In this document: piece after piece, positions 1,152 through 30,012 of the stretch
Layout of the letters: each line of letters begins with the position of its first letter
Position numbering within the stretch: the first letter of the stretch is position 1
Source: Pseudomonadota bacterium
Lineage (GTDB): Bacteria > UBA10199 > 2-02-FULL-44-16 > JBDRGF01
DNA length: 64,000 nt
Direction of reading: 5' to 3'
NCBI GenBank assembly: GCA_043818055.1
Contig: JBDRGF010000159.1
Location: 17,623 to 81,622, forward strand
Program-made: the position numbers and the translations under genes
Notes under the pieces: generated by a model
The model's input: the letters and a program-made list of their open reading frames with translations, nothing else
Database searches by the model: none
What the model was told of the DNA's origin: nothing

Positions 1152-2585
1152 TTAATACCGGAAATGCATGTCGGCAAGAATACTATTAAAGTCCTTTTCA
1201 ACATCTTTCCCTAACCGAAATACAAGACTCTCCAGATAAGAACTCTCAGAAAGCTGTCTTGACGCGGACTCAGTTAAACTCATATCGATAAGCGCCCGCA
1301 TCCAGCGTTCATCTACATTATACTTAACAAAAAAAGTGGTCATTTTTGTTAAATTTCTAATTTTTTTTGCTGTTTCCCGATCAAATCTAACAGATCCTTC
1401 GCCAGAATGCCACTCGTACTCGCATTTATCGTTTAACAAAACCCCATCATTGAGACATTTGTTGTAAAGTAAAGTGCCGGGATATAACATCAAAGGAAAA
1501 CACGTAGTAAAGCCGCCTGGAGCAACACGTTGACAAAGTTTGATTGTATCAAGGGCGTCTCCAAGTGGATCTTGGACGGGAAGTCCGATTATCACTTCTA
1601 ATTTTACTTTGATACCAAAACTACGAAGCCTTTCATAAGCTTTTTTAACCTGCTCTTCTTTTTGAAAAGTTCGATTGAAAAGGTTTAACGATTCTGGCCG
1701 CGCAGTCTGTACCCCCATTTGAACAGAACTTACAATCTTCGCCAAAGTGGTCAAAGCCTTATCAGATACCTTCATTACAGTTTGAGGCGTCACATTGGCA
1801 TATGTCGGCAAACCAATTTCCTTATTCCAAGCGTCCACAAATGATTCGATCCATGTTTCAGCCTCGGCACCTGCAAAAATATCATCATCTTCCAACGACA
1901 CTTCTCTCGTATCAAATTCAAGCAACACCTTAGCTTCTTTAATAAGCTCCTCTACGGGACGTCTCATCATCCAGTACTTATTATATTCAGTAGCACCATA
2001 ATGCTTCCGAAGTAATGAAGTAGTACAATAAGAACAGTTATATAAACAACCAAAATGCGACATGATGTATTTGCGATGTCTGTTTGCCATACGGGGAATT
2101 GACAAGTAATAATCACGTACAGACGGGTACATTACTTGGCTATCTACAGGTTTTCCTATGATAGTGCCTTTGCGCTCACTTTTTATAATTTTCTCCACTG
2201 TTCCGTACACCGGCCCTCTGACCAAAATATCGACTGCTTTACTTTCTATACATTCTGGAACGGCAAATGCATGCACACCGCCAAATACTGTCGAAGCTTC
2301 CGGTAACGCCGATTTTATCTTCATTGCAAGCTCTTCTGACTTTGAAAAAAATGTTGATAACGGAGAAAAACAGACAAAATTTGGCTTCCATTCCGATATT
2401 CTTGAAACCACATCAGGATCATCACCATCATACCATTTTACGTCATAGCCATGTCTTTCAAGCTCGCCGGCCACAAATGTAAGACCGTAAGCCATATCAT
2501 TACCTATGTGAATCAAAGCAAATTTTCTTGAATTCGATCTAATTTCTCCGACTGACGCCTTTGTTTTTTCACATGAGCAGTTCAA
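1152..2585 (-). CDS. B12-binding domain radical SAM enzyme (class B rSAM, probable methyltransferase)
   Basis: N-terminal cobalamin-binding-like region followed by CLYNCSYC, which fits CxxxCxxC. 477 aa. Confidence 0.8.
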   Translation of the reverse strand: MNCSCEKTKASVGEIRSNSRKFALIHIGNDMAYGLTFVAGELERHGYDVKWYDGDDPDVVSRISEWKPNFVCFSPLSTFFSKSEELAMKIKSALPEASTVFGGVHAFAVPECIESKAVDILVRGPVYGTVEKIIKSERKGTIIGKPVDSQVMYPSVRDYYLSIPRMANRHRKYIMSHFGCLYNCSYCTTSLLRKHYGATEYNKYWMMRRPVEELIKEAKVLLEFDTREVSLEDDDIFAGAEAETWIESFVDAWNKEIGLPTYANVTPQTVMKVSDKALTTLAKIVSSVQMGVQTARPESLNLFNRTFQKEEQVKKAYERLRSFGIKVKLEVIIGLPVQDPLGDALDTIKLCQRVAPGGFTTCFPLMLYPGTLLYNKCLNDGVLLNDKCEYEWHSGEGSVRFDRETAKKIRNLTKMTTFFVKYNVDERWMRALIDMSLTESASRQLSESSYLESLVFRLGKDVEKDFNSILADMHFRY

Positions 2586-2598
2586 TAGCCACCTCCGA

Positions 2599-3672
2599 TT
2601 AAAAAGCTTTATTCATATAACGCGAAAAAGTGGATGTTACTATATGAGCATATTTCAGATATTTAAGAGGTACCAACATTTTAAGCCTCGCTTTAGCAAT
2701 ATACAAAGGCATAGCATTAAACGCAATATTCAATTCAGAAACAGCATTATCATATAAAGTTGAACCTCTCAGAAAATCAAATCCCTTCTCAACCAAAAGA
2801 CGGTATTTCAGCATATCGTCCATAACTAACTTTTTATTATGCATTATGCTTCTTACAACAACAGCACATATAACCGATTTCAATATCGAAGATAAGTTTT
2901 TTTGGAAATCAACCTTCAGAGCATCCTTTGACAAAACCGTAATACTTTCTCGAATTAGATTTACCCCTGCTTCTTTAAACAATGCTACATCACTACTTGA
3001 GCATGTCCATGACTTTTCATGCATACGAGTCGAAACCAATGGAGCATCTATATAAACAACTTCAGGCAACAAACCAGTTTTAATTAAAAGTAAATCTTCT
3101 GTATATAAAGCTGTTGGCCCGCTTGATAGCCGTTGAACACCGCCAATACTTCTAAGATAATCTGTATTATAAAACCCACAACATCCCATCGCTTTTAACC
3201 CACCTGACAAATAAGCCCTTAGAAAAGCTCTCCCTGAAAACAACATGGCCCGTCCATCATTATATCTTTTGAACTTATGAACATGGGAACCATAAATACC
3301 AAAATATGATGTAAACACAGATATTGGGAAATCAAACTTAGTCAAAGCAGCACAAGACTCATTTAAAAAAGTTGGCGCACATGGGTCATCATCAAACTGC
3401 CATGTAAAATACTTACCATTAGCTCTGGTGAGCAAATAATTCATATTTTCCAACTCACCCATATTCCGTTTGTGATTGATAATTTTAACTCTTGGATCGT
3501 CAATTCCCAACATCTCGAGCGAAAGGGAATCGTCCACAAAATCATTTCCAACAATAACTTCAAAATCAGTAAAGGTTTGCGCTAAAATAGATGAAAGAGT
3601 TTGTTTCAATAAATCTTTTCTCCTATAAGTTGGAACACCTATTGAAAAAAAAGGCTGTCCTGTGATCGCCAT
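2599..3672 (-). CDS. Family 2 glycosyltransferase
   Basis: N-terminal FSIGVPTYRRKDLLKQTLSSILAQTFTDFEVIVGNDFVDD GT-A motif region. Confidence 0.75.
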   Translation of the reverse strand: MAITGQPFFSIGVPTYRRKDLLKQTLSSILAQTFTDFEVIVGNDFVDDSLSLEMLGIDDPRVKIINHKRNMGELENMNYLLTRANGKYFTWQFDDDPCAPTFLNESCAALTKFDFPISVFTSYFGIYGSHVHKFKRYNDGRAMLFSGRAFLRAYLSGGLKAMGCCGFYNTDYLRSIGGVQRLSSGPTALYTEDLLLIKTGLLPEVVYIDAPLVSTRMHEKSWTCSSSDVALFKEAGVNLIRESITVLSKDALKVDFQKNLSSILKSVICAVVVRSIMHNKKLVMDDMLKYRLLVEKGFDFLRGSTLYDNAVSELNIAFNAMPLYIAKARLKMLVPLKYLKYAHIVTSTFSRYMNKAF

Positions 3673-3695
3673 CCTAACTCCCCTTGTTATTAATT

Positions 3696-4565
3696 CTATG
3701 GTCTGTTTGCCGAAAACACGATATCCTTCAAATGCCGCAGTGTCATTAAAGAATATTTTTTGTCGCTTACGGTATAAAATTGACAGACAGCCCGCTTTAT
3801 GAGCCTAATATAGAATATGAAATTTTCCATTTTCGATCCATAAGATTTCATAAAAAGTGTTTCAGCTTTGAGAATATTTAAATATCTTTTTTCATTCATG
3901 AATTTATCATAGTTTCTTACGGAAAGCTCGTGTTCAACAATCGAATCCATTACATAAATCTTATTGCCTATTTTGTTGATAGAATAAAACATCCATCTAT
4001 CTAAGCAGTCCATCCAAAACACTTCATTAAATCCACCGATTTTTTGCAAAACGGGAACTCTGACAGTGCTTCCAGAACCGATGGCACAGGCGTTTTTAAA
4101 CATACAAATACCTCTGTGTCGCCTGTCTATCGCCCTGACTATCCCGCCAAACCAAATCCTTGTCGGAGAAAATATATTATTCTTAAAGCACATCTTTGGA
4201 ACAACGGCGGCAATCTCGTCATTATCACCAACCTTGGAAAGATTATCCATCAGGCTGACAATAAAATCATCCGGCAATGATGAATCTTGATCCAAAAGAA
4301 GCAACCAGTCGCAGAAAGCATTAACCGCTTTACTCAACGCGTAATTGTACGCAACTGCCAAGCCTTTGTTGGTGTTGTCATGAACATATTCGCATTTAAA
4401 TACTGTGAAATCCAGACTTTGTATTGATGGACTATTATCGTAGACAATAAAGTTTATTTTCTCAAATGATTGAGAATCTCTCATATAATTCTTCAACAGG
4501 GAAATATATGTTTTACTATTCTCAATTACACAATTATAAACCACTATAATGACCGTTAAACTCAT
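3696..4565 (-). CDS. Family 2 glycosyltransferase (rhamnosyltransferase-like)
   Basis: TVIIVVYNC...YDNSPS N-terminal GT2 signature and LLLLDQDS DxD region. 4-nt overlap with the upstream gene. Confidence 0.7.
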   Translation of the reverse strand: MSLTVIIVVYNCVIENSKTYISLLKNYMRDSQSFEKINFIVYDNSPSIQSLDFTVFKCEYVHDNTNKGLAVAYNYALSKAVNAFCDWLLLLDQDSSLPDDFIVSLMDNLSKVGDNDEIAAVVPKMCFKNNIFSPTRIWFGGIVRAIDRRHRGICMFKNACAIGSGSTVRVPVLQKIGGFNEVFWMDCLDRWMFYSINKIGNKIYVMDSIVEHELSVRNYDKFMNEKRYLNILKAETLFMKSYGSKMENFIFYIRLIKRAVCQFYTVSDKKYSLMTLRHLKDIVFSANRP

Positions 4566-6313
4566 GGTCTACCCCGACACAATTTTTCTCTTAGCACAAA
4601 CATCTTATTTTGGATTCGTCTAAACAAGCTTCTACATTTACGCGGAATGCAACCTAACAATGCAATAATAAAATATGAGTTGCAGTACAATAATATATTT
4701 ATACTTACTGCGTGTCGAAAATCACTTATTCCATACACAGCATTAGCTATAGAACTCTCCAACTTACAAAAACGATCAAAATCTTTTTTGTTAAGCAAAA
4801 CATTTAGACTTGATGCAATTCTTATAATTAACAATCTCATCGAATGGGTTTTTAAAGCCGATGTCACATCAGGAATGTTCTTCAACGCTACAAGAAAATT
4901 ATATATAGCCCTGATCACCATCACATTAAGATCAATTTTATCGCGCCATTCCCACTCAGCATCAATAAAAATGCATTTATTATCAAATATAAAACAGTTA
5001 CTCCACAAACAATCCAAATACTTTCCATCAAGTAGTTCCACTCCCATCTCCTTCGTGCATAACGATTTAAGATAGTAAAGCCACAATTTGCATGGAGCAA
5101 ATATATCCTCTATAGAAACATTTATTTCTCTAACCCTCTTCAATATCTGCGCATGCAACGTCGGCTCGTTCAGCCATTCATCTTTACATGTATGAAGTGA
5201 CATCTTTCCCAACGTCACTACTTCAAGACCACATTGAGGTACTTTATTTACAAATATTCTTTTATTTTCGCATTCAAGAATTCTGGTCACTGTTTGAAAT
5301 TCGCTAATTCGATTTTCACTATAAGCCAAACCAAGTTGGTCAAATTTAATCGATGATATGTTATGCCTGCCAGCTATAACCAAGAATGAATTAGAAAAGA
5401 AAGGGAGTTGGTTGTTTTTATCTAGTTCTAAGAGAGCGATATTTTCATCGAATAATGGTTTTCTACGGCCTGAGTAATCTCGCGGCCTATAAAGACCCGC
5501 AAGCTCACCCGCTTTTATTTTATTGAAAGCCCTCTCCGCTAAAACACATGATGGTATTTTATAATCTGGGTACGGAAAATAAAATTCGACATTTTCATAG
5601 TATTTTTTAAGTCTTGATCGCAACTCATAATAACCAAACGTCCGTCCTCTGTTTTTAAAACGGGGATACCCTTCTATGCCATCGAACATAACATCCGTAT
5701 GGTCTTCGCTACTCGATGAAAAGTATTTCAATCCAAACTGGTTTTCAATTGCCAGAACGACTACTCCATCTGGTGTTAAAATATCTTTAAAATACTCAAG
5801 AATGTAATCATAAGGATTATCTTTATTCACAAAAGCATTTGAATACTCAAAAACGCCGACACAAAAAATTATATCGAAAGGCTCTTTAAAATCCACCTCG
5901 TGAAATGGGGCACAAAGCACCGAAACATTGTTCATATCCTTTGTGCGCAAACGCGCCAAACGTGCTCTACTCTCGCTACCTTCAACGGCAACAACATCAT
6001 CGAATGTTTCTGCAAGAAAGCGAGTGATTGCTCCGCAACCGCAACCAACCTCCAACACTTTTTTTGTTCTATCATACTCAAAACCACGAAGAAGTTGCGT
6101 TCGTTTTCTCGACAAATGATATTCGCTTGACCAATCCCTAATGTAGCGTTCTAGTTCGTACGACTTTGAGCTCAAATCAGTCGCTTTCCTAAATACCTTT
6201 TCGAGGTAATTCTCAAAGAAACGACCCTCTGAGTAATTTATCGTATTTCCGTTAGCAAGAACCCAAACTGACCCATCGTTAAGCTCTATTTTGTTATTAA
6301 CTCTTTTTTTCAT
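4562..6313 (-). CDS. Class I SAM-dependent methyltransferase fused to a ~350-aa C-terminal domain of unknown function
   Basis: VLEVGCGCGAITRFLAETFDDVVAVEGSE SAM-binding motif I in the N-terminal third. I do not recognise the C-terminal part. Confidence 0.65.
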   Translation of the reverse strand: MKKRVNNKIELNDGSVWVLANGNTINYSEGRFFENYLEKVFRKATDLSSKSYELERYIRDWSSEYHLSRKRTQLLRGFEYDRTKKVLEVGCGCGAITRFLAETFDDVVAVEGSESRARLARLRTKDMNNVSVLCAPFHEVDFKEPFDIIFCVGVFEYSNAFVNKDNPYDYILEYFKDILTPDGVVVLAIENQFGLKYFSSSSEDHTDVMFDGIEGYPRFKNRGRTFGYYELRSRLKKYYENVEFYFPYPDYKIPSCVLAERAFNKIKAGELAGLYRPRDYSGRRKPLFDENIALLELDKNNQLPFFSNSFLVIAGRHNISSIKFDQLGLAYSENRISEFQTVTRILECENKRIFVNKVPQCGLEVVTLGKMSLHTCKDEWLNEPTLHAQILKRVREINVSIEDIFAPCKLWLYYLKSLCTKEMGVELLDGKYLDCLWSNCFIFDNKCIFIDAEWEWRDKIDLNVMVIRAIYNFLVALKNIPDVTSALKTHSMRLLIIRIASSLNVLLNKKDFDRFCKLESSIANAVYGISDFRHAVSINILLYCNSYFIIALLGCIPRKCRSLFRRIQNKMFVLREKLCRGRP

Positions 6314-6317
6314 ATAC

Positions 6318-7844
6318 CTATTCTCCGGCTAAGTTGGTTTGACTTTCGCAGACAAGCACAGGTCTGAAAAGTTGAATACGGACTCGAATTCCTAGTGAAG
6401 TTAGAGTATTATTAATTATTCCTACAAGTGATTCTCCGAGAAGACTTGGAACAAACGAGACTATTAATAAAACCGAAATTACACTACTGCCAAGAACAAC
6501 ACAAAGAAACATCATATTGGATGATGTTAGTTGCCGGACTGTTGTAACAATTGGTAAAATAGTTAGTAACAATAAACTACCGATTATAATTCCATGTGTG
6601 TATAGTTTAAAATAATCTTTCAATCTGAATCTGACGATTGATTTACTTAATTGTATCATTAAAATATAGCCAATTACGTTAGCTATATCAACCGCAATGG
6701 CCACGCCTTTCAAACCGAAAAATGTTCCCACCCAGCTAAATGATATGATTACGAGTGCAGTTATTGCCTTTCGCACGGCACTTGCATATACGGCACCGGT
6801 TGCACGCACAAGAGTATCGGAGATGGTTATAAATATTCTACAAACAATAGTGAGTAACAAAATGCGGAATGGCCAAATGGAAGCTGACCAGTTAGGACCC
6901 AATAAAGTGTAAATTATTTCGGGTGCAATTAGAAACATCAGCACAGTTAGCGGAATTAAAGCAGTACTTACAATGCTCGTAGAAGTAAAGTAAGCTTTTT
7001 CTAACCTTCCTGCTTGGCTTTGAACTTGAGACATTGCTGGAAAAAGAGCTTTGTCCAGGACAAGATTAAGATGCTGACCGGGCATCGACATAATTGAAGA
7101 CGCCCTGTCATAGAAGCCTAAAGATGTAGAACCTAAAAAATGACCAATAATGAAATAATCACCTTGTGAGGCAATGCTATCAAATACTCTTGTTAACGTC
7201 AGACCTCCACCATAAGTCAGAAGTTCTTTATACTCGCTGCCAATTATAAATGGCCTCAAGGAGCCTGGTCTTATAAACAATAAACACGCTGTTTGCAGAC
7301 AACATTGAGTTAATTTTCCCACAACAATTGCCCATGCCCCAGATCCATGCATTGCCATTAAAATACCAACTAGAGCATACCCAAACACATATGAACCAAC
7401 ATCAATCCACATTAGGATATCAAACCTCATCTCCCGCTCTATGCGAGAACGGGAAACAATGCCTATTTTGGTAATCAACGCCGAAACCGCAATCCATCTT
7501 ATTATACTTATAAGACTTTCAGCCTTAAAAAAGGTCGCAATTAGTGGTGCGCACAACCATAATATCAACACAAAGAAGGTACCCAATATTATCGATAGAA
7601 AAAAACCTGCCCTTATATGTTTTTCAGTTAATTCCTCTTTTTGAATTATTGCCGGGCCAATACCAGCATCGGCAAACATATCCACAAAAATCATCACCAT
7701 ATTGGCCATGGCTATGTAGCCGAATTCTCTGGGCAAAACATATCGCGCCAATACTGCTAATACCAATAATTGCAAGACACCCTTTGCGACAACAGCCACA
7801 AGTTGCCAGCTTCCCGCTTTTATGGTTCGGTGTGTTAGAGTCAT
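6318..7844 (-). CDS. wzx: Oligosaccharide/O-antigen flippase Wzx (MOP superfamily)
   Basis: 508 aa with about 12-14 hydrophobic helices and the typical N-terminal KGVLQLLVLAVLARYVLPREFG Wzx-like region. Set in a polysaccharide locus. Confidence 0.7.
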   Translation of the reverse strand: MTLTHRTIKAGSWQLVAVVAKGVLQLLVLAVLARYVLPREFGYIAMANMVMIFVDMFADAGIGPAIIQKEELTEKHIRAGFFLSIILGTFFVLILWLCAPLIATFFKAESLISIIRWIAVSALITKIGIVSRSRIEREMRFDILMWIDVGSYVFGYALVGILMAMHGSGAWAIVVGKLTQCCLQTACLLFIRPGSLRPFIIGSEYKELLTYGGGLTLTRVFDSIASQGDYFIIGHFLGSTSLGFYDRASSIMSMPGQHLNLVLDKALFPAMSQVQSQAGRLEKAYFTSTSIVSTALIPLTVLMFLIAPEIIYTLLGPNWSASIWPFRILLLTIVCRIFITISDTLVRATGAVYASAVRKAITALVIISFSWVGTFFGLKGVAIAVDIANVIGYILMIQLSKSIVRFRLKDYFKLYTHGIIIGSLLLLTILPIVTTVRQLTSSNMMFLCVVLGSSVISVLLIVSFVPSLLGESLVGIINNTLTSLGIRVRIQLFRPVLVCESQTNLAGE

Positions 7845-8776: not shown

Positions 8777-8818
8777 TTTTCGTCCTTTGCTTGAGTTGTT
8801 TTCGTTTTACCTTATTTA

Positions 8819-9841: not shown

Positions 9842-9859
9842 ATTGAACTGTCGATTTGT

Positions 9860-13597: not shown

Positions 13598-13647
13598 GCA
13601 TCTCCTTTTTTATAAAATATTATCTCAAGCAATTATTAAGCCGACTC

Positions 13648-16922: not shown

Positions 16923-16924
16923 GA

Positions 16925-21008: not shown

Positions 21009-21082
21009 AAAATCGCTCCTTTTTGATCTGTAATTATAGTTTTATACTTAACCGAACACCAAGGAATTCTTCTCTCAAATTA

Positions 21083-22078: not shown

Positions 22079-22086
22079 ATATATAT

Positions 22087-22866: not shown

Positions 22867-22891
22867 TTATCACCTCCAATAGCTCACAAGA

Positions 22892-24265: not shown

Positions 24266-24270
24266 TAAAA

Positions 24271-25407
24271 TCAGAATAAATTATTCATTTTAATTTCATA
24301 CCCGATGTTTAATTTTTGCATGCATTGCCGACAAATATCGAATGTATTATAATTTTCCCCGGTTACAAATAAACCGCGGATTTTCTGTAATTTTCTACTA
24401 TTCCAGATATCAGATAAATTGTCTTCGTTTATATTTCCCAAAACCAATCCTTTCTCGATTTTGTGAGAGAAGGCTGTGCAACATATTGAAACATCTCCGT
24501 TTATATATACCGCCAGTTGCAACCATGGTGACATGCATAAGAAGCGCCGTCCCCTGGTGTACTTAAACCATGGAAGATAGTAGTCGGAATCCTTAAGCCG
24601 ATACCCTTTTATGGAATCCTTCTCCATTTTATTGACGCCATTTAACAAGCTGGGAAGACTGCTCTTGAGACCAATCTTTGAGGAAAGCTTCTCGGCCTTC
24701 CTTAAAGTGGCAATGATTTTTTCCAGATCATAATTCTCTCTGAACTCCCTTGCGGTTTCTTCTGTAAATTGTGAAAAGTTTACCGGAACAAAACTAACGA
24801 ATGAACTATTTAACTCTTTTGCCAGATAGACAAATGGGATAATGTCGTCTAAGTTGTTTTTCTGAATAACAAAATCCAGACGGCATATTTCTCTTTTAAC
24901 ATCAAGTTCCTTTCTAATCCTATCCAGTCGTCTGATATTACCTAATAATTGATCAAATCCATTGTTTTTCCGTATCTTTTCGTAGGTCTCCTTTGTCGCT
25001 GCATCCATGGAAAATTTGATTAAATTGATGCCATTTTTTATTAAATTGTATGCAGTTCTTTCGTCAAGCAATAGACCGTTTGTAGTTATGAATGATTTAG
25101 ATTTATTTTCGCTAGCTATCCTCACCAATTCGCAGATGTCCTTATTCATCAACGGTTCAGCGGAAATGCCACCGAATAACATCATTTTTGGCTTTATCTG
25201 CGAATACAGCTTTTCTAATGTCTTAATGCTGAGAAATTGCTTCTCAGATTGCTTAAAATATGATTGATTCCGATAACACATTTTACAGCTCAAATTGCAA
25301 ACATTAGATGTGTCTACATTCACCGCAATCGGTTGATTTAGAATCTTTTTATGTTTTAAAATCAGCGAAATGAAAGCCTTTATATATTCTGACATAAACC
25401 GTCCCAT
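24271..25407 (-). CDS. Radical SAM enzyme with SPASM/twitch C-terminal domain
   Basis: VDTSNVCNLSCKMC and C-terminal CMSPW...ICC...CRQC Cys-rich SPASM-like region. Confidence 0.8.
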   Translation of the reverse strand: MGRFMSEYIKAFISLILKHKKILNQPIAVNVDTSNVCNLSCKMCYRNQSYFKQSEKQFLSIKTLEKLYSQIKPKMMLFGGISAEPLMNKDICELVRIASENKSKSFITTNGLLLDERTAYNLIKNGINLIKFSMDAATKETYEKIRKNNGFDQLLGNIRRLDRIRKELDVKREICRLDFVIQKNNLDDIIPFVYLAKELNSSFVSFVPVNFSQFTEETAREFRENYDLEKIIATLRKAEKLSSKIGLKSSLPSLLNGVNKMEKDSIKGYRLKDSDYYLPWFKYTRGRRFLCMSPWLQLAVYINGDVSICCTAFSHKIEKGLVLGNINEDNLSDIWNSRKLQKIRGLFVTGENYNTFDICRQCMQKLNIGYEIKMNNLF

Positions 25408-25409
25408 AA

Positions 25410-26498
25410 TTATTCAATTGTTATTGAAGAAAACTTTCCTTTTTTTAATTTATTCGCTATTAACAAGGCTATTTTTTCAAACCTGTATCCTAGAAAGTTT
25501 GTAACTGCATCAGTCAAACTAAGCCTTATGCCCGAAGGAATACCTACTATAGGGGGAGTGCCCAAGACAATACAATTACCGCATAGTGGCAACAGATCAA
25601 GATAATCTCCATCGAGCATTGATTGTCTTAATTTAAGCATTTTATTGCTGTTCCAAATATCTATTAATTTGTTTTCCTTGATATTTCCTATAACATATTC
25701 ATGATTGGTATCATAAACACATGGCACAACATCGCCATTCCAGGTGATACATACTGTACTCCACAATCGCGAGCACGGCGGAAAAAAGCGGTCATGTTTT
25801 CTAGGGTTAAAGGTATCTACACCCTCAAAAGTGCTACCCCAGGTTGAAACCTCCCTTAAACGGACCTCATCAATAAGACCATTGAATTTTTTCAAAAAAA
25901 CCTCTTTTTCTTCTCCACTACAATCCCCTATTTCGAGCATTAAGATGGATAATACGGTATAGGGAGATTTTTTTTCTTTTCTCTTTTTCAATTCTAGGAA
26001 GTAAAAAATGTTATCAAGGGTTTTTTCAAAATCAGCACCGACCCTTGCCTTTTCATAGGTTTCCTTATTAAACCCGTCAAAAGCAAAGCTTATACTGGCT
26101 ATTCCGGAATACAATAACTGCTCCACCTTTTCCTTAGTCAAGAGGGTAGCATTTGTATTTAGCAAGATCTTTATGTCATTAGAACTTGCATATCTTACCA
26201 TATCGAAGAATTGAGGGTGAAGCAGAGACTCGCCCCCAACTGCCAGGATGATTGCAGATGTATAATCCTTAACCTCATCTATTATCTTCTTGAACAGACC
26301 ATAATCCATATAGCCCTTTTTAACACTTGTCATTCCAGTCCCCGTAGGACACATAATACATTTCAAGTTGCAATGGTTGGTTGGCTCTAACCAAATAAAA
26401 CTAGGGGGATTATCTAAATGCACCTTTTTCCTGTGATAATTTTTTAAGGCCCTTATATTATTGAATAGTATTTTAATTTTTTTTATCATATCTGACAT
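25410..26498 (-). CDS. Radical SAM enzyme with SPASM/twitch C-terminal domain
   Basis: EPTNHCNLKCIMC and C-terminal CSRLW...PC...CGNC. Paralog of the preceding gene. Confidence 0.8.
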   Translation of the reverse strand: MSDMIKKIKILFNNIRALKNYHRKKVHLDNPPSFIWLEPTNHCNLKCIMCPTGTGMTSVKKGYMDYGLFKKIIDEVKDYTSAIILAVGGESLLHPQFFDMVRYASSNDIKILLNTNATLLTKEKVEQLLYSGIASISFAFDGFNKETYEKARVGADFEKTLDNIFYFLELKKRKEKKSPYTVLSILMLEIGDCSGEEKEVFLKKFNGLIDEVRLREVSTWGSTFEGVDTFNPRKHDRFFPPCSRLWSTVCITWNGDVVPCVYDTNHEYVIGNIKENKLIDIWNSNKMLKLRQSMLDGDYLDLLPLCGNCIVLGTPPIVGIPSGIRLSLTDAVTNFLGYRFEKIALLIANKLKKGKFSSITIE

Positions 26499-26512
26499 TT
26501 ATTAATTACTAA

Positions 26513-27964
26513 CTAACCGCATATCCGATGGTTTATCATAGCTACTTTTAAAGCTTCAAAATAATTTGTATAGGACTTCTTGGTCTTTTGAGTATAAAGT
26601 TGTCTCAGCAATACATATGGACGAAAAACCAACATTTCTAAGAGGAAGAGGCTAAAGCGTGGATACGTGAATAGATTAAGGTTAGCATTCTTTTGCCCCA
26701 ACGAGAGAAACTTTGATCTATAGTATAATAATTCATTTCTCGATAGAGTTGACCGAAAATTGGGATTTTCCGTTAACGAAAACGATAGATCATCCAACAT
26801 CTCTCCATCTTGCTCATTATAGTAGGAAGTACCTGGCATAGGCATATAATAGTTTACTGTTACAAAAGTTGGTTTGACCTCTTTCAACAATTCTACGGTT
26901 TGGTCCATATCGCGTTTGGTCTCTCCAGGAAGGCCTATGATAAGAAATATATATGTATATATACCAGCGTCGTTGATAGCCTTGATTGCCGTTTTAACCT
27001 GTTCAATTGTAATCCCCTTATTCATATCAATAAGCATTCTTGGAGACCCAGATTCAACCCCTAGTGCCAATTGCATAAAGCCCGCTTCCTTCATCAATTT
27101 CAACGTTTCTTTTGAACCTACCTTATCTACTCTTGTCTGTGCATATATCTTCAATTTTATCTTCTCTTTTAATAGTCCTTCACAGAATTCCGTAACGCGT
27201 CTATCAGTGAAATAAAAGAGGTCGTCCAGAAGGACAAGTCCCTTAATCTTATATCTGTCTATCTGCCATTTGATCTCATCTATTATTTCGCCGATAGGCC
27301 TTTCGCGGTACACGTTCCTTATTGGCTCAGTACAAAACTTACATCTAAATGGACATCCTCTATTGGCCATCAGAAAACCCGTCTTGATGAAATGCCCAGG
27401 TATACCACCCAGCTTGATATTTGTATAGTGAACATAGTCCACTAAATCAACTGCGGGATATAAAAGATTATAGAGATCCTTCGGTTCTCTTCGAGATGTT
27501 TGGAAAACCTTCCGTTCTTTCAAGAAGGCAATGCCTTTTATGTCTTCCAATGTCTTACTTGAATCATAAGCATTTATGAGTTCAACCGCTGTTTCTTCAC
27601 CTTCGCCAATTACTACCACATCGGCTGAATAGCTTAGATATTTTTCAGGTGAAAAAGAGGGGTCTTTTCCACCGCATATGATGATTTTATCCTTGGTAGT
27701 CTCTCTTACCTTTTTTATTATCCTTGAGGCAACCTTTCTATTCCAACTTATGACTCCTAAACCAATGAAATCGGGATCAAAAATGTAGAGCTCCTCCCAC
27801 AATTTCTTATTTTTTCGGGTATTAAAATCTTCATCGATAAATTCGATTATCTTCACCTCATGTTGTGCTCTTCTAAGATAACTAGCTACATATAGTAAAC
27901 CCAAGGCAGGACGCCATCCTTTTCTAGGATTTATAAGTAATATTTTCTTTCTCATATTATACAA
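26513..27964 (-). CDS. B12-binding domain radical SAM enzyme
   Basis: NRGCPFRCKFC CxxxCxxC with an N-terminal B12-binding-like domain. Confidence 0.8.
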   Translation of the reverse strand: MYNMRKKILLINPRKGWRPALGLLYVASYLRRAQHEVKIIEFIDEDFNTRKNKKLWEELYIFDPDFIGLGVISWNRKVASRIIKKVRETTKDKIIICGGKDPSFSPEKYLSYSADVVVIGEGEETAVELINAYDSSKTLEDIKGIAFLKERKVFQTSRREPKDLYNLLYPAVDLVDYVHYTNIKLGGIPGHFIKTGFLMANRGCPFRCKFCTEPIRNVYRERPIGEIIDEIKWQIDRYKIKGLVLLDDLFYFTDRRVTEFCEGLLKEKIKLKIYAQTRVDKVGSKETLKLMKEAGFMQLALGVESGSPRMLIDMNKGITIEQVKTAIKAINDAGIYTYIFLIIGLPGETKRDMDQTVELLKEVKPTFVTVNYYMPMPGTSYYNEQDGEMLDDLSFSLTENPNFRSTLSRNELLYYRSKFLSLGQKNANLNLFTYPRFSLFLLEMLVFRPYVLLRQLYTQKTKKSYTNYFEALKVAMINHRICG

Positions 27965-28967
27965 CCTGTTTTATCCGCAAGAAATCGCATCTTCTGCAGA
28001 AGTCAAATTCTTCCTGGTGTTTCCTGAGATAATTGAATTTCTCACCACACCATACTTCTCTTATGTCCTTTTCCAGCATGTTGCCCATATTTAGTTCTTT
28101 AGAAAAACAACAAGGATAGACATCGCCATTTTGAGCAATAAATACGAAATCTTGAAATCTGTAACAATATGTATCGAGTCTTAGAAGAAACTTGAAATAC
28201 TTGTAAAAAAACCCTTTCCATCCATCGAATATTTGATCTTGGAGATAGTCAATTCTTATCTTGTATCTCTTTCTTAACCTAGCAAATTCATTAAATATCT
28301 CTCTTTCTTCTATCAAGTTAGGCCGTTTCATGTCAGGGACAAACCTTAAATCAACGCGAACGACATTGATCCTATCAACACAATTTTCAGCACCCCACTT
28401 GATTATCTCATAAACATCTTGCACTTTATCGCTAAACAGAATGGGCTGAAGCGTAACTCTTGGTGTTAAAGAACCCAGTTCCTTTTTCATCTCAATCAAT
28501 CTTTTTATGTTCCTTAGCGCTTTTACATTTGGATGGGATATTTCACTGTTTTCCTTCAGACTTTCAATGGAAAACGAAATCCAGTCCAGTTTTGACCGAA
28601 TTACTTTCTCCATCTTCTCTTCATCTTCTAACAACAAACCATTTGTCGTTATCTGAACTTCCAAACCTCTTTCCTTACAGTATCTTATGGCCTCATAAAA
28701 TCTAGGGTATGTTAATGTTTCTCCAATTCCCACCAAAATCACAGTCTTTACCGCTTCAAGTCTATCTACCACTTTCTTGAATAACTCGTAATCCATATGA
28801 GTTCGTTCGATATCAATATAATTTCTGATGCACATCTTACAATCTAAATTACAACAATTGGTAATACATATCTGTGCAAAACGAGGTGAGCTCTCTGGTA
28901 TATGCAAGATTTTCCTTATCGCTGTAGAGATAAAGCTTCTACTCATATTAATAAACAAGCCTCTCAT
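27957..28967 (-). CDS. Radical SAM enzyme with SPASM/twitch C-terminal domain
   Basis: ICITNCCNLDCKMC and C-terminal PCC...CRRCDF. Confidence 0.75.
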   Translation of the reverse strand: MRGLFINMSRSFISTAIRKILHIPESSPRFAQICITNCCNLDCKMCIRNYIDIERTHMDYELFKKVVDRLEAVKTVILVGIGETLTYPRFYEAIRYCKERGLEVQITTNGLLLEDEEKMEKVIRSKLDWISFSIESLKENSEISHPNVKALRNIKRLIEMKKELGSLTPRVTLQPILFSDKVQDVYEIIKWGAENCVDRINVVRVDLRFVPDMKRPNLIEEREIFNEFARLRKRYKIRIDYLQDQIFDGWKGFFYKYFKFLLRLDTYCYRFQDFVFIAQNGDVYPCCFSKELNMGNMLEKDIREVWCGEKFNYLRKHQEEFDFCRRCDFLRIKQVV

Positions 28968-30012
28968 CTAAATTCTCCTGACTTTGCTGGGCACGCTTGA
29001 TTAGCTCTTTATTAAAGATATAATAAAGATAGCTAATGAACGCTACAAAAATTAAAGACGCCTCACCAAGTATTCTCGAAACCACTACAAAAATCCCAGC
29101 CTCAGGCGCATTAACACCCATCAATACCAAAACCCCAAACCAACTGACATCAAGTGATCCAAGAGCCCCTGGAATAAATGTTGCAATAATTATGACCTGA
29201 ACCACGGCAGAGCCTAATAAGATATAGTAAAAAGGGATGTTGATCTGTAAAGCTAAAATAATAATATAAACCCGTAATGTTATGCATAATTGTTTCAAAC
29301 AGGAGTAAAAAAATAATCTAATGGCAATACTTCTACTAAATGGGTTGAGTTTTTCGGACATTATAGAATTGTTCTGAAACCTTCTTTTGAAAAAGAAAAC
29401 CTTGGAAACGATCTTAAGTAAAAACCTATAAACCCGTATTATCAATCCGAATATCATTCCATTTTTATAAACAATCAAACCAAACAATGAGAGGATCGAC
29501 ACAACAATAAATGTAACCGAGGCCTCTAAAGATAAAATGTCAACAAAAAAAAGCAATGATGGGATAACCAGTAAAATGAGTATTAATAAATCAAATAATT
29601 GTTCGATAAAGATTGCCAGTACCCCTTTGTCTGCTGGTATTTTATGTAATAACTTCATGGAAATAGTTTTAAGGCCATAATTTCCACTTTGTGGTATTAT
29701 AGTATTCAATATCATAGCTATTGCACAATTGTATAAAAAATAACCTTTGGGGATTTTACTAATGTCCACTAAATTATTTAAAATCATTTTCCATTTTAAA
29801 CCTGAAATACTAAGAATGAAAAAATTTGTAATTACTATAGCAATGAGATAATAATATTTAATATTACGAAGATTATTTATAACCATTTTTGGTGAAATGC
29901 CGGCGAGCCTTATCATCAAGACAATCAAAAAAAAACCCAGAACAGCTAAAGATGAATTAATGATAATTTTATAATGTTGTTTAAAAAAAATTTTACCTGA
30001 AATTAATTTCAT
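28948..30012 (-). CDS. UPF0104 / lysyl-PG-synthase-TM-like 'flippase-like' membrane protein
   Basis: 354 aa with about 8 TM segments and the N-terminal pattern typical of the YbhN/UPF0104 family. Confidence 0.5.
   Translation of the reverse strand: MKLISGKIFFKQHYKIIINSSLAVLGFFLIVLMIRLAGISPKMVINNLRNIKYYYLIAIVITNFFILSISGLKWKMILNNLVDISKIPKGYFLYNCAIAMILNTIIPQSGNYGLKTISMKLLHKIPADKGVLAIFIEQLFDLLILILLVIPSLLFFVDILSLEASVTFIVVSILSLFGLIVYKNGMIFGLIIRVYRFLLKIVSKVFFFKRRFQNNSIMSEKLNPFSRSIAIRLFFYSCLKQLCITLRVYIIILALQINIPFYYILLGSAVVQVIIIATFIPGALGSLDVSWFGVLVLMGVNAPEAGIFVVVSRILGEASLIFVAFISYLYYIFNKELIKRAQQSQENLDERLVY

Follow-up and report, generated by a model that had tools for sequence, protein, structure and literature searches.

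Surface-polysaccharide locus and its radical-SAM genes

The window, the whole 64-kb stretch of DNA analysed here, comes from an uncultured bacterium and carries a long polysaccharide locus in which rmlABCD, a Wzx-type flippase, GT2 glycosyltransferases and all eight radical-SAM (rSAM) genes lie on the minus strand. Seven of these eight genes fall in a cassette at 15262-35363. The features outside the cassette are as follows.

1152..2585, minus: orphan B12-binding rSAM (Pfam B12-binding 42.7 bits, Radical_SAM 43.8 bits)
2599..6313, minus: a pair of GT2 glycosyltransferases, plus a 583-aa methyltransferase whose C-terminal half is rich in Cys (Pfam)
6318..7844, minus: Wzx-type flippase (Pfam Polysacc_synt_3, 244 bits; 14 hydrophobic segments)
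7844..13597, minus: second, conventional NDP-hexose tailoring set, with TylC3-type C-methyltransferase, DegT, cupin and three SDRs (Pfam)
13648..15249, minus: 533-aa membrane protein of a rare unannotated family, ~10 TM segments (TM prediction); candidate polymerase or GT-C-type transferase
35389..38795, minus: rmlB, rmlD, rmlC, rmlA (dTDP-rhamnose pathway; Pfam)
50192..50704, minus: NusG-family paralog at the locus head (Pfam NusG, 62.4 bits)

The cassette itself consists of the following features.

15262..15897, minus: small SAM methyltransferase, closing the cassette (Pfam)
15930..16922, minus: GT2 carrying two TM helices at its C terminus; the HpnJ-like gene lies immediately upstream (Pfam GT2 families)
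16925..18412, minus: HpnJ-like B12-binding rSAM, cassette anchor (Pfam B12-binding and Radical_SAM; NCBIfam HpnJ)
18403..19059, minus: DUF218 protein (ElyC/SanA-like), one N-terminal TM segment (Pfam DUF218, 89.4 bits)
19080..19670, minus: GmhA-like SIS-domain isomerase (Pfam SIS_2)
19707..21008, minus: 433-aa rSAM (rS433), core; four-helix N-terminal extension and degenerate twitch domain (Pfam Radical_SAM only)
21083..22078, minus: SDR closest to HpnA ("hopanoid-associated sugar epimerase"), core (NCBIfam HpnA 196.8 bits, cutoff 367.65)
22087..22866, minus: class I SAM methyltransferase, accessory (Pfam methyltransferase domains)
22892..24265, minus: B12-binding rSAM (B12c), variable slot (Pfam)
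24271..25407, minus: twitch-type rSAM (SPb), accessory (Pfam Radical_SAM and SPASM)
25410..26498, minus: twitch-type rSAM (SPc), core (Pfam Radical_SAM and SPASM)
26513..27964, minus: B12-binding rSAM (B12d), core (Pfam)
27957..28967, minus: twitch-type rSAM (SPd), core, coupled to B12d (Pfam Radical_SAM and SPASM)
28948..30012, minus: polytopic PF03706 "flippase-like" protein, MprF-TM/AglD/HpnL superfamily (Pfam LPG_synthase_TM, 94.9 bits)
30042..31301, minus: DegT-family PLP aminotransferase, 419 aa, core (Pfam DegT, 242 bits)
31302..31908, minus: degenerate spacer with a truncated SIS/GmhA-like ORF (31726-31899) and a fragment that is transposase-like by eye only (31424-31549) (translations)
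31909..32877, minus: HddA-like GHMP kinase, heptose-7-phosphate 1-kinase type (Pfam GHMP_kinases_N and C)
32879..34213, minus: fusion of a sugar-1-phosphate nucleotidyltransferase and a GmhB-like HAD phosphatase (Pfam NTP_transferase and HAD)
34217..34585, minus: small DUF2304 membrane protein of the GacJ/Rv3632 family, paired with the following GT2 (Pfam DUF2304, 72.5 bits)
34611..35363, minus: short soluble GT2, candidate polyprenyl-phosphate sugar synthase, PpgS/GacI-like (Pfam Glycos_transf_2)

A six-frame scan of the whole window found exactly eight ORFs of at least 150 aa with a CxxxCxxC motif, one motif in each, and therefore the nine rSAMs in the title of an initial annotation, whose own text names eight, are one too many. 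The rSAM ORFs listed there are all intact and on the minus strand at the positions above. Spacing is tight, though looser than the 0-25-nt gaps or 4-nt overlaps it described: genes overlap by as much as 25 nt or stand as far as 74 nt apart, and there is a single large gap of 607 nt (31302-31908). Its reading of a surface-glycan locus is supported: a Wzx (6318), a cupin, several GT2s and SDRs of the epimerase or dehydratase kind are present, as are four SAM methyltransferases, namely 4562, 12374 (TylC3-type C-methyltransferase domains), 15262 and 22087, and two DegT enzymes, 11274 and 30042, the second just beyond the end it had set (30012). The idea of one pathway in a standard operon needs revision, since seven rSAMs form a discrete recurring cassette and the 1152 rSAM lies outside it, in the variable part; this rSAM has no PDB sequence match, and none of the related loci holds a counterpart. 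The tailoring set at 7844..13597 is likewise not conserved together with the cassette.

The 583-aa methyltransferase contains 18 Cys and no CxxxCxxC motif. The 13648 membrane protein has no Pfam or NCBIfam match and 120 relatives among 1.84 billion representatives, with D41, H45, H97, E211 and R364 invariant in the family; a cut ORF at 3-1151 also encodes a polytopic membrane protein without family match. The Wzy-like protein of the initial annotation is putative. No GT-C transferase or initiating phosphoglycosyltransferase is recognisable in the window, which counts against the pathway proposed below. The NusG paralog is possibly an RfaH/UpxY-type antiterminator.

Enzyme classes within the cassette

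The eight rSAMs of the window comprise four B12-binding enzymes, three BtrN-type twitch enzymes and one with a predicted fold closest to the twitch enzyme SkfB. As initially annotated, 1152-2585, 16925-18412, 22892-24265 and 26513-27964 combine B12-binding and Radical_SAM domains, both above Pfam gathering scores. Three of four proposed SPASM/twitch enzymes hold, with Radical_SAM and SPASM in Pfam (24271-25407, 25410-26498 and 27957-28967); the fourth, rS433, matches Radical_SAM only and has a degenerate twitch domain, its N-terminal extension being predicted to form four helices. The twitch enzymes carry Cys 291, 309, 359 and 362 (SPb; BtrN 1e-9), Cys 242, 260, 306 and 309 (SPc; BtrN E=4e-13, DesII 2e-6) and Cys 268, 286, 324 and 327 (SPd, matching the BtrN twitch region). 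B12d best matches OxsB and AprD4 among PDB sequences (~1e-16), and B12c matches MgmA (9ccb), AprD4 and TokK. The SPd stop codon lies 1 nt from the B12d ATG, and natural fusions join SPd to B12d (P0016) and a methyltransferase to rS433 (P0359).

The rSAMs do not resemble peptide maturases. Among solved structures, those closest to them belong mostly to enzymes of sugar or small-molecule chemistry (BtrN, DesII, BlsE, AprD4, OxsB and TokK), and no RRE domain was found: in the twitch enzymes CxxxCxxC starts at residues 37-43, which leaves no space for one, and the extension of rS433 is the predicted four-helix one. Nor did we find a precursor peptide, the only sizeable gap (31302-31908) containing a pseudogene instead.

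The anchor aligns over its full length with NCBIfam HpnJ at 391 bits, below the 577.6 cutoff; the next family is BchE (160 bits), making HpnJ by far the closest. Its model (pLDDT 82) best fits AprD4 in the PDB (TM 0.62-0.72). The GT2 beside it, with TM segments predicted at 246-295, has MftF (121.5), EpsD, PgaC and AglG as best NCBIfam matches and no HpnI match.

Genes for heptose activation back the heptose proposed initially. The 19080 SIS protein scores 89-95 bits with NCBIfam GmhA models (cutoffs 209-276), the 31909 kinase best matches HddA (155.6 bits, cutoff 600), and the 32879 fusion scores 157.9 bits with GmhB (cutoff 178) and 91.9 with HddC (cutoff 300). The truncated SIS ORF in the spacer retains an "IFGNGGSA" motif; in other loci an intact SIS gene fills this slot, giving the order NTP-GHMP-SIS. 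A "SFGYGK" stretch in the 30042 DegT looks like a candidate Schiff-base lysine motif.

The initial annotation overlooked the lipid-carrier components, that is, the GT2-DUF2304 pair, the two-TM GT2, the PF03706 protein and the DUF218 protein. The 34611 GT2 best matches NCBIfam PpgS (93.8 bits, cutoff 370), and its DUF2304 partner has ~4 hydrophobic segments. Such pairs make polyprenyl-phosphate sugars, GacI and PpgS being stimulated by GacJ and Rv3632, respectively (bioRxiv 10.1101/180810). The 28948 protein (~8-10 TM segments) matches TIGR00374 at 63 bits, above the 43.2 cutoff, and belongs to PF03706 like the membrane domain of AglD/HpnL (PMC12324291). The DUF218 protein matches ElyC (37.7) and SanA (27.1) in NCBIfam, both weakly.

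Recurrence of the cassette in other genomes

The co-occurrence analysis found the same genes together in many unrelated genomes, and the clustering is not due to chance. Orthologs of eleven cassette genes, 43-68% identical, occur in loci of Omnitrophica and Magnetococcus and in further loci from MAGs or an unassigned metagenome; identities include 57-63% for SPc, 48-61% for SPd, 56-63% for B12d, 54-66% for the DegT, 43-56% for the SDR, 48-56% for the two-TM GT2, 47-59% for the 15262 methyltransferase (always after the GT2) and 57-61% for the kinase (L001, L003 and L004). Five of the seven cassette rSAMs have clear orthologs elsewhere, the exceptions being B12c, with 31-33% identity to B12-rSAMs of L001, L003 and L004 (paralog level only), and SPb, with weak matches only in related loci; the 22087 methyltransferase has no ortholog there. 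Homologs of the anchor form >120 clusters at ≥60% identity (mean column identity in an alignment 67%), and those of B12d ~55 clusters at 42-65%, every one from a MAG or metagenome.

We surveyed 37 non-redundant loci, each of at least 9 kb with an HpnJ-like ortholog. Of these, 24 contain a GHMP kinase or a SIS gene, and 12 have at least five rSAM-like ORFs. No more than 8 kb from the HpnJ-like ortholog lie an ORF resembling the two-TM GT2 (26 of 37), a GHMP kinase (20) and a PpgS-like GT2 (17). GmhA/HddA/GmhB/HddC-like genes and the PpgS/GacI-like GT2-DUF2304 pair are usually near the anchor; about one-third of the loci (e.g., L117-L119, L121, L123 and L138) have no heptose genes within the available sequence. 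In rSAM-rich loci a membrane-anchored GT2 directly follows the HpnJ-like gene, as in the window and in L001, L003, L004, L085, L086, L089, L095 and L128. Shared membrane components include the GT2-DUF2304 pair (L085, L087, L095, L128, L133 and L169), the PF03706 protein (L001, L003, L004 and L169) and the DUF218 protein (L001, L003, L004, L086, L168 and L169); the nucleotidyltransferase/HAD fusion recurs in L087 and L168.

The cassette recurs in many anaerobes next to heptose-activation genes, including cultured Desulfobacula phenolica, where it counts ten rSAM genes, and Pseudodesulfovibrio sp., with an adjoining HldE-type gene; among the other related loci the maximum is 9 rSAM-like ORFs, packed into 21 kb in L004. 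Polysaccharide or teichoic-acid-type genes adjoin it in all loci inspected. The gene content is thus not unique, yet the cassette is uncharacterised: the literature searched yielded no product or description of such a cluster, in line with the initial claim.

Proposed pathway and comparison with known systems

We lean toward reading 15262-35363 as an example of a "radical-SAM heptose-tailoring cassette", recurrent but uncharacterised, inside a Wzx-type surface-polysaccharide locus. Its product is best read as an NDP-heptose-derived sugar, probably bound to a lipid carrier, which would be aminated, radical-remodelled and then joined to a surface glycan. Gene content and synteny are the observations from which we infer each step, as well as all substrates and reactions, because no enzyme reaches the curated cutoff of a characterised family, bar the generic flippase-like model. 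The GmhA-like SIS protein, HddA-like kinase and GmhB-like HAD/nucleotidyltransferase fusion would make an NDP-heptose from a ketose phosphate, for which sedoheptulose 7-phosphate is the likeliest candidate. A membrane-associated GT2 would place the sugar on a carrier, most likely polyprenyl phosphate, the candidates being the PpgS/GacI-like GT2 with DUF2304, the two-TM GT2, or both. The HpnA-like SDR would oxidise a ring carbon, which the DegT enzyme would transaminate, and the HpnJ-like rSAM would bring about a radical skeletal change of the carrier-bound sugar. B12d and B12c may then catalyse C-methylation or rearrangement, and SPd, SPc, SPb and rS433 oxidation, deamination, decarboxylation or epimerisation (BtrN-, DesII-, BlsE- or epimerase-type). 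SAM methyltransferases would cap O or N atoms, the PF03706 protein would export the product, and a polytopic transferase would join it to the rhamnose-containing polymer from the rest of the locus.

Several of these assignments have rivals. Given the divergence of the heptose genes (GmhA-like ~90 bits against cutoffs of at least 209, HddA-like 156 against 600), a different C6-C8 sugar derived from a ketose could be the substrate instead. The loci without heptose genes also speak against the preferred reading. For the two-TM GT2, which is not HpnI-like and best matches MftF and PgaC, candidate acceptors are polyprenyl phosphate, another lipid or the growing glycan. The skeletal change at the anchor would be a ring contraction or carbocyclisation on the precedent of HpnJ, Cds and PtmC, with dehydration or C-methylation as alternatives; against it stands the closest solved fold, AprD4, a dehydratase that is not known to use cobalamin. 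The rSAMs could also act on an NDP-sugar instead of a lipid-linked one; carbocyclisations by HpnJ, Cds and PtmC are thought to follow attachment of the sugar to its carrier by a glycosyltransferase (PMC9092360; PMC13459092).

On our preferred reading, remodelling of a carrier-bound heptose, the cassette would probably make a heavily remodelled surface sugar via chemistry so far undescribed for bacterial glycans. The initial equation of B12-rSAMs with C-methyltransferases is too narrow for its anchor, which pairs the AprD4 fold with a nearest family, hopanoid HpnJ, that is proposed to contract a sugar ring to a cyclitol, but to which the anchor's similarity is sub-threshold.

Gene order and radical-SAM complement

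Nearly all substantial ORFs lie on the minus strand, from ~50.7 kb down to position 1 of the window, and the G+C content is ~33-41% over the first 40 kb and 45-49% at the housekeeping end. Of the six window proteins that could be found by exact-sequence look-up in the protein collection, five are singletons at 90% identity. The gene order, given here in the direction of transcription, was read from Pfam and NCBIfam scans.

Gene order of the window in the direction of transcription (GT2 and SDR are family names; rSAM, radical SAM; TM, transmembrane)
50192-50704 (-), NusG-family paralog at the head of a ~50-kb co-directional gene array
Downstream of it, UDP-sugar genes mixed with nucleotidyltransferase/HEPN-type pairs resembling toxin-antitoxin modules
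48096-49083, HepT-like protein and nucleotidyltransferase
41939-42427 and 45285-46626, Schlafen AlbA_2 and HATPase_c_4/wHTH fragments
44834-45151, 23S rRNA intervening-sequence protein
42748-43479, nucleotidyltransferase and HEPN fusion
39990-41918, full-length Dxs, with an L-2-hydroxyglutarate oxidase alongside, before the rml genes
38795-35389 (-), rmlA, rmlC, rmlD and rmlB
35363-34217 (-), short GT2 (34611-35363) and DUF2304 (34217-34585)
34213-32879 (-), nucleotidyltransferase/HAD fusion
32877-31909 (-), GHMP kinase
31302-31908, degenerate spacer of 607 nt between GHMP kinase and DegT
31301-30042 (-), DegT
30012-28948 (-), PF03706 flippase-like membrane protein
28967-22892 (-), five consecutive rSAM genes, then a methyltransferase and an SDR
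21008-19707 (-), sixth rSAM, then a SIS isomerase and DUF218
18412-16925 (-), seventh rSAM, then a GT2 with two C-terminal TM helices and a small methyltransferase (ending at 15262)
Variable part (-), ~10-TM protein without annotation, TylC3-type C-methyltransferase, second DegT, cupin and three SDRs
Remainder of the variable part (-), Wzx, 583-aa methyltransferase, two GT2s, eighth rSAM (2585-1152) and a cut-off polytopic protein

The NusG paralog could be an operon-specific antiterminator of the RfaH/UpxY type. Between 41939 and 49083, elements resembling defence or toxin-antitoxin genes are scattered among the sugar genes. The spacing is less tight than the 0-25-nt gaps or 4-nt overlaps of the initial annotation, since neighboring genes overlap by as much as 25 nt or are separated by as much as 74 nt, the 607-nt spacer (31302-31908) being the one exception. 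A scan for promoter-like sites returned the number expected from shuffled sequence (54 vs. 52.4 ± 8.0) and terminator-like sites were modestly above it (16 vs. 9.3 ± 3.1), a resolution at which operon boundaries are not separated. Wzx is a clear Pfam match (244 bits) and Wzy is only a candidate in the window; the Pfam and NCBIfam scans returned no initiating phosphoglycosyltransferase in these 64 kb, past which the contig continues, and no GT-C transferase was identified in the window. Two polytopic ORFs, 13648-15249 and 3-1151, have no family match.

There are eight rSAM ORFs in the window, each intact and each with one CxxxCxxC motif inside a Radical_SAM domain (PF04055) scoring above the gathering threshold. 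All of the genes that the initial annotation listed were found intact, but its count of nine becomes eight, since a six-frame scan of the whole window yields no ninth candidate. Four of these proteins (genes 1152, 16925, 22892, and 26513) combine an N-terminal B12-binding domain (PF02310) with the rSAM core, both above Pfam cutoffs. Of the others, three match Radical_SAM plus SPASM above cutoff and one matches Radical_SAM alone. Full SPASM domains are defined by a seven-cysteine motif, and twitch domains bind a single cluster through four ligands (C-x(~18)-C...CxxC). The 24271, 25410, and 27957 proteins, which exceed the PF13186 cutoff, have four C-terminal cysteines (C-x17-C...CxxC), a pattern that fits a twitch better than a full SPASM domain. 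All three match the twitch region of BtrN, which ranks first among solved structures with 24271 and with 25410 and second with 27957. The remaining protein, the 433-aa rSAM encoded at 19707 (rS433), displays a partial motif with three invariant cysteines, and the top fold match of its predicted structure is SkfB. Because the paralogs share only 20-33% identity with one another, a recent tandem expansion is excluded. As for the B12-rSAMs, their nearest relatives include the non-methylating HpnJ, AprD4, OxsB, and BchE, and the affinities to HpnJ and AprD4 do not support the general rule, previously applied here, that such enzymes are C-methyltransferases.

A recurrent cassette and its surroundings

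The B12-rSAM 26513 has ~55 homolog clusters (42-65% identity), exclusively from MAGs and metagenomes. Around three of these homologs, in an unassigned metagenome, a Magnetococcus sp., and an Omnitrophica MAG (loci L001, L003, and L004), we found the same gene set as in the window, which we compared gene by gene using tblastn.

Identity of window genes to their orthologs in L001, L003, and L004 (tblastn)
15262, methyltransferase, 47-59%
15930, GT2 with two C-terminal TM helices, 48-56%
16925, HpnJ-like rSAM, 60-68%
19707, rSAM, 61-66% (L001 and L004; not seen in L003)
21083, SDR, 43-56%
25410, twitch rSAM, 57-63%
26513, B12-rSAM, 56-63%
27957, twitch rSAM, 48-61%
30042, DegT, 54-66%
31909, GHMP kinase, 57-61%

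Conservation is weaker (22-48%) for the DUF218, flippase-like, SIS, and nucleotidyltransferase proteins. By tblastn, genes 22087, 22892, and 24271 have no clear ortholog in these three loci and 1152 has none at all. Since orthology is found within 15262-35363 and nothing across 1-15249 is conserved with it in the related loci, this region is a discrete cassette, set into an otherwise ordinary, variable polysaccharide locus. Two natural fusions occur in related cassettes. In P0016 (812 aa; L001, 10001-12439), a 27957-type twitch rSAM is joined to a 26513-type B12-rSAM, the genes for which are one nucleotide apart in the window, and in P0359 (564 aa, on the L167 contig), a SAM methyltransferase is joined to an rS433-type rSAM. 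These fusions argue that the enzymes concerned act on the same substrate.

We call the HpnJ-like rSAM 16925-18412 the anchor of the cassette; its family comprises more than 120 clusters at ≥60% identity, with a mean column identity of 67% in their alignment. Its hosts include the cultured Desulfobacula phenolica, a Pseudodesulfovibrio sp. entry without MAG label, and MAGs from Maribacter, Scalindua, Omnitrophica, Magnetococcales, and Oscillospiraceae, to which a metagenome scan added 80 loci (46-77% identity). The distribution of the cassette rests on these metagenome loci and on individual look-ups; a scan of GTDB genomes with generic patterns (RGCPxxCxFC) gave, among the matches listed, only B12-rSAMs of ≤34% identity (L005-L084) and no orthologs. 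Our earlier co-occurrence thresholds (35% identity, 60% coverage) undercounted divergent partners, and neighborhoods were counted instead on per-locus maps of 37 non-redundant loci, each ≥9 kb long. Of these 37, 24 have a GHMP kinase or SIS gene and 12 have at least five rSAM-like ORFs; within 8 kb of the anchor, 26 have a GT2 resembling that with two C-terminal TM helices and 17 have a PpgS-like GT2. The commonest minimal arrangement is GT2 + DUF2304, GHMP kinase, nucleotidyltransferase-HAD, SIS, HpnJ-like rSAM, and a large unannotated ORF. These large ORFs mostly encode predicted polytopic membrane proteins; in the Oscillospiraceae locus, two of the large ORFs are DUF2142 and DUF6311. The window contains an expanded, rSAM-rich form of this minimal module.

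Such expansion is not confined to the window. D. phenolica (assembly GCA_900105645.1, contig FNLL01000002.1, at ~29-63 kb) carries ten rSAM genes together with the kinase, the nucleotidyltransferase/HAD fusion, DUF218, DegT, the trio of HpnJ-like rSAM, GT2, and methyltransferase, the GT2 + DUF2304 pair, and a split transketolase, and the Pseudodesulfovibrio locus has an additional HldE-type heptose kinase/adenylyltransferase. The gene content of the window is therefore not unique, since D. phenolica and other related loci share it; it is the whole cassette class that lacks annotation. We also observed that split transketolase subunits or Dxs-like thiamine diphosphate (TPP) enzymes recur near HpnJ-like genes (L168, the D. 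phenolica locus, at 529-2267; L117, L118, and L123), that L001 has a TPP_enzyme_N/C protein, and that the window has its full-length Dxs at 39990-41918. These enzymes might provide a ketose-phosphate precursor or lengthen it, or their proximity might be a coincidence. In a subgroup of loci (L117-L119, L121, L123, and L138; HpnJ-like proteins of 55-57% identity), the GT2 is upstream of the anchor, not downstream, and the available sequence contains no heptose-nucleotide genes; a different sugar or acceptor may be involved there.

The spacer, which is the only large intergenic gap of the cluster, contains a truncated GmhA/SIS-like ORF of 57 aa (31726-31899, with the motif IFGNGGSA) where related loci carry an intact SIS gene, a second and intact copy of which is found in the window at 19080-19670. 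A fragment at 31424-31549 resembles, by eye only, the N terminus of a transposase. Together, the SIS remnant and this fragment suggest that the spacer is the trace of a past insertion or rearrangement.

Directly after the cassette, the 533-aa protein encoded at 13648-15249 has ~10 TM segments and belongs to a rare family: a set of 1.84 billion representative proteins contains 120 relatives. The family has the invariant residues D41, H45, W73, H97, Q100, W153, W156, Y157, H208, E211, and R364. Pfam and NCBIfam assign the protein to no family, Pfam is likewise empty for 33 of its relatives, and clustering separates it from the large membrane proteins found in other loci. We regard it as a candidate for a polymerase or a GT-C-like transferase. 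The orphan B12-rSAM 1152-2585 adjoins two GT2 genes, has only weak family matches (the best, TIGR04013, at 64 bits vs. a cutoff of 251), and matches no sequence of a solved structure. None of the related loci has an equivalent, and this enzyme acts apart from the cassette. The 583-aa protein (4562-6313) has a class I methyltransferase domain at its N terminus (residues ~60-190) and a C-terminal half of ~330 aa without domain match, which carries 14 of the 18 cysteines; it has no CxxxCxxC motif. Finally, 7844-13597 and rmlABCD (35389-38795) make up a second, conventional deoxysugar pathway, with a TylC3-type NDP-hexose C-methyltransferase (Methyltransf_13/14), a DegT aminotransferase, a small cupin, and three SDRs, which suggests a C-methylated amino-deoxyhexose in the same glycan.

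Proposed pathway and alternatives

The anchor matches the HpnJ equivalog model (TIGR03471) over its full length with 391 bits, the next family being BchE at 160. Since the cutoff is 577.6, it belongs to a sister family and is not HpnJ itself. HpnJ-threshold domains have been reported only from genomes positive for squalene-hopene cyclase (SHC) (PMC12324291). SHC, HpnH, HpnI, and HpnK are absent from the window and from the ~45 related loci inspected, and NCBIfam returns no HpnI match at E ≤ 1e-5 for the GT2 beside the anchor. Strict homology to the hopanoid module (HpnI/HpnL) was considered and rejected: as this GT2 is not HpnI-like and the membrane protein matches (E ≤ 1e-5) only a generic flippase-like model, we keep the hopanoid module as an analogy alone. 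In the predicted structure of the anchor (pLDDT 82), the nearest solved fold is that of AprD4 (TM-score 0.62-0.72), an rSAM diol dehydratase whose substrate is an aminoglycoside sugar, followed by TsrM, CysS, OxsB, MgmA, and TokK. HpnJ, the calditol synthase Cds, and the pactamycin enzyme PtmC are the three known or proposed rSAM conversions of a sugar to a cyclopentitol, none of which has been reconstituted, and in these a glycosyltransferase is thought to attach the sugar to a carrier first (PMC9092360; PMC13459092).

The best NCBIfam matches of the sugar-activation genes are all below cutoff, with GmhA at 89-95 bits (vs. 209-276), HddA at 156 (vs. 600), GmhB at 158 (vs. 178), and HddC at 92 (vs. 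300). By family resemblance, all four steps of an NDP-heptose route appear to be represented by the SIS protein, the GHMP kinase, and the HAD/nucleotidyltransferase fusion. As for the carrier, the short GT2 (34611-35363), a putative synthase, has as its best NCBIfam match, below cutoff, the polyprenyl-phospho-GalNAc synthase PpgS, and it adjoins a DUF2304 gene (34217-34585), as in GacI/GacJ and PpgS/Rv3632. Two C-terminal TM helices are predicted in the conserved GT2 that follows the HpnJ-like gene, an architecture of the GtrB/ArnC type. DUF2304 is the GacJ/Rv3632 family of activators of polyprenyl-phosphate sugar synthases (10.1101/180810), and the PF03706 membrane domain is common to MprF, AglD, and HpnL (PMC12324291). 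The PpgS-like GT2 with its DUF2304 partner, the two-TM GT2, and the PF03706 protein point to a probable lipid-carrier stage. The SDR 21083, which is closest to HpnA in NCBIfam, and DegT would provide an oxidation followed by a transamination.

On balance, we favor a general picture in which an NDP-heptose-derived sugar is lipid-linked, tailored by radical chemistry, and added to a surface glycan, a reading that we consider somewhat better than evenly supported; any particular reaction is proposed with much less confidence. Domain content, synteny, conservation, fusions, and the absence of RiPP features are observed, whereas the chemistry is throughout what we infer. The pathway would begin with synthesis of an NDP-heptose and its transfer to a lipid carrier, followed by oxidation, transamination, and a radical change of the sugar skeleton by the HpnJ-like enzyme. 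The other rSAMs would tailor it further, O/N-methylation would follow, and the product would be flipped and transferred to a rhamnose-containing polymer. A bolder version, which we regard as doubtful, is that the HpnJ-like enzyme and its GT2 form a widespread unrecognized route to the ring contraction or carbocyclization of a lipid-linked heptose, which expanded cassettes elaborate by amination and poly-C-methylation, using further B12-rSAMs and twitch rSAMs, to place a carba-heptose or aminocyclitol on the surface of anaerobes. If true, bacterial surface-glycan biosynthesis would for the first time have cobalamin-dependent radical chemistry assigned to it, and would offer a bacterial glycan parallel to the bacteriohopanetetrol (BHT)-cyclitol ether, calditol, and the pactamycin core.

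The main competitor, ranked by confidence ahead of a glycolipid, a diffusible product, and peptide maturation, is the reading of the initial annotation, in which all tailoring occurs on soluble cytoplasmic NDP-sugars, with B12-rSAMs as GenK/Fom3-type C-methyltransferases and twitch rSAMs as BtrN/AprD4-type enzymes, before ordinary GTs build a Wzx/Wzy repeat unit. NDP-sugar activation genes are indeed the most consistent neighbors of the HpnJ-like gene, the nearest solved relatives include DesII and BlsE, whose substrates are nucleotide-linked or nucleoside sugars, Viperin and MoaA, structural neighbors of rS433, use nucleotide substrates, and the window has Wzx and several GT2s. We nevertheless judge this reading unlikely, since it leaves unexplained the two-TM GT2 fixed beside the HpnJ-like gene, the GT2 + DUF2304 pair, PF03706, and DUF218, since a lipid-linked sugar is the presumed substrate of HpnJ, the family nearest to the anchor, and since the affinities to HpnJ and AprD4 speak against methylases throughout. 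Rather improbable is that the product is the head group of a free membrane glycolipid instead of a polysaccharide residue, analogous to BHT-cyclitol ether or calditol lipids in anaerobes without hopanoids. This would suit the HpnJ-like and HpnA-like proteins, a PF03706 domain common to MprF, AglD, and HpnL, the envelope-associated DUF218 family (ElyC/SanA-like), and the carbocyclization precedents, which are lipid head groups. Against it, the cassette lies within polysaccharide or teichoic acid-type loci wherever the flank suffices (rml, Wzx, GT1/GT2s, DUF2142/DUF6311, MBOAT/AlgX), lipid-synthesis genes are not conserved with it, and HpnJ-threshold domains, which are restricted to SHC genomes (PMC12324291), score higher than the anchor family.

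A diffusible aminoglycoside or pseudosugar-type natural product, encoded by chance next to glycan genes, we find very unlikely. The aminotransferase, SDR, B12-rSAMs, twitch rSAMs, methyltransferases, and GT do resemble the toolkits for gentamicin, apramycin, butirosin, and pactamycin (PMC9092360 for the logic of the last), and AprD4 and BtrN are among the nearest structures, but the cassette has no conserved 2-deoxy-scyllo-inosose synthase, sugar-phosphate cyclase, resistance gene, or exporter, includes lipid-carrier components, and occurs across very diverse lineages, nearly all known only from MAGs or metagenomes, always among envelope-glycan genes. We give scarcely any credence to the SPASM/twitch and B12 rSAMs being maturases of peptides (RiPPs) or proteins, even though maturase families are the best NCBIfam matches of the twitch proteins (W_rSAM_matur, ~115-125 bits), because all such matches are far below cutoffs of 380 and above, no peptidase or ABC exporter is present, and the genes conserved alongside belong to sugar-nucleotide and GT families. 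In the twitch proteins, no N-terminal domain precedes the cluster motif, and the extension of rS433 is predicted to consist of four helices without a β-sheet, which we take not to resemble a PqqD-type RRE. The initial annotation had named peptide maturases with a nearby precursor peptide as the finding that would overturn its glycan assignment; RiPP features are absent from the window. The RiPP hypothesis was rejected: there is no RRE-like N-terminal domain, and intergenic gaps are ≤74 nt except one, the only sizeable gap, which holds the SIS pseudogene and the transposase-like fragment.

The preferred picture of a lipid-linked, radical-tailored sugar has no precedent in what we searched. The full-text literature searched, which covers few subscription-journal papers, contained no rSAM or B12-dependent rSAM in bacterial surface polysaccharide biosynthesis, and nothing relevant that links rSAMs to O-antigens, capsules, heptoses, or carbocyclic sugars. 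No such system is described in recent reviews of rSAM enzymes that depend on B12 or modify lipids, and a 2026 review of the B12-dependent enzymes mentions neither polysaccharide nor glycan nor heptose. Relative to this literature, we rate the cassette as a glycan-tailoring gene set with an unprecedented radical-SAM complement. HpnJ-like genes of 46-77% identity were found in 80 metagenomic loci in addition to genomes or MAGs of Desulfobacterota, Omnitrophica, Magnetococcales, Scalindua, Oscillospiraceae, and Maribacter. For enzymology, the cassette offers at least five uncharacterized rSAM families, likely acting on one substrate class, and a new way into the unsolved HpnJ-type reaction. Any new sugars could serve as antigens, phage receptors, or biomarkers of anoxic habitats. 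Since the cultured D. phenolica carries the ten-rSAM version, the cassette is directly testable.

Comparison with known systems

No cassette enzyme reaches membership of a characterized equivalog family, and its relation to known systems is one of partial likeness. The HpnJ system is close in several respects: the full-length HpnJ match of the anchor is far above that to any other family, and the cassette has an adjoining GT2, an HpnA-like SDR, and a PF03706 (HpnL/AglD-type) membrane protein. Both would also follow one logic, with a GT loading the sugar on a carrier and a radical enzyme then remodeling it. However, the anchor scores below 577.6, the GT2 is not HpnI-like, the membrane protein fits only a generic flippase-like model, there is no SHC, HpnH, or HpnK in view, the partners are heptose-nucleotide genes, and hosts include lineages in which we saw no hopanoid link; the HpnJ reaction itself has never been reconstituted. 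The heptose route of GmhA/HddA/GmhB/HddC is paralleled by SIS 19080, GHMP kinase 31909, and the HAD + nucleotidyltransferase fusion 32879, in a typical adjacent gene order in related loci. Here too the matches are below equivalog cutoffs, GmhB alone coming near (158 vs. 178), and between loci the kinase is 57-61% identical, whereas the SIS protein and the transferase are only 26-32%. The actual sugar may differ from the product of that route.

By sequence and fold, the nearest solved relatives of the cassette enzymes are aminoglycoside-type rSAMs (AprD4, BtrN, DesII, BlsE, GenK/GenD1, and OxsB), with AprD4 as the best fold for the HpnJ-like model, the BtrN twitch region matching all three twitch proteins, and BlsE and DesII among the matches. 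Aminoglycoside pathways and the cassette also combine the same enzyme types (aminotransferase, SDR, B12-rSAM, twitch rSAM, and methyltransferase). Identity in fold alignments is nevertheless 12-22%, sequence E-values are at best 1e-9 to 1e-20, and the aminoglycoside pathways make secreted antibiotics in actinomycetes and bacilli, whereas the cassette belongs to envelope-glycan loci, with lipid-carrier components, of mostly anaerobic or uncultured lineages. The pactamycin aminocyclopentitol pathway attaches its sugar to a carrier by a GT (PtmJ), oxidizes and transaminates it (PctP/PctC), carbocyclizes it with an rSAM (PtmC), and C-methylates it repeatedly with rSAMs (PtmH/L/M) (PMC9092360). This likeness is one of logic only, and the pactamycin sugar is carried by an ACP-bound polyketide instead of a lipid.

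Among transmembrane glycosylation systems (GacI/GacJ/GacK/GacL, PpgS/Rv3632/Rv3779, GtrABC, and ArnC/ArnT), GacI/GacJ and PpgS/Rv3632 resemble the GT2 + DUF2304 pair of the cassette, which also has a second GT2 with two C-terminal TM helices, a flippase-like membrane protein and, in related loci, large polytopic membrane proteins nearby, including DUF2142 and DUF6311. These systems differ in that they move ordinary sugars without rSAMs, and their GT-C enzyme has no identified equivalent in the window. In a combination not described in the literature that we searched, the cassette resembles a joining of HpnI/J/K logic, the tailoring of aminoglycosides and pactamycin, heptose-nucleotide synthesis, and GacI/J-type glycosylation.
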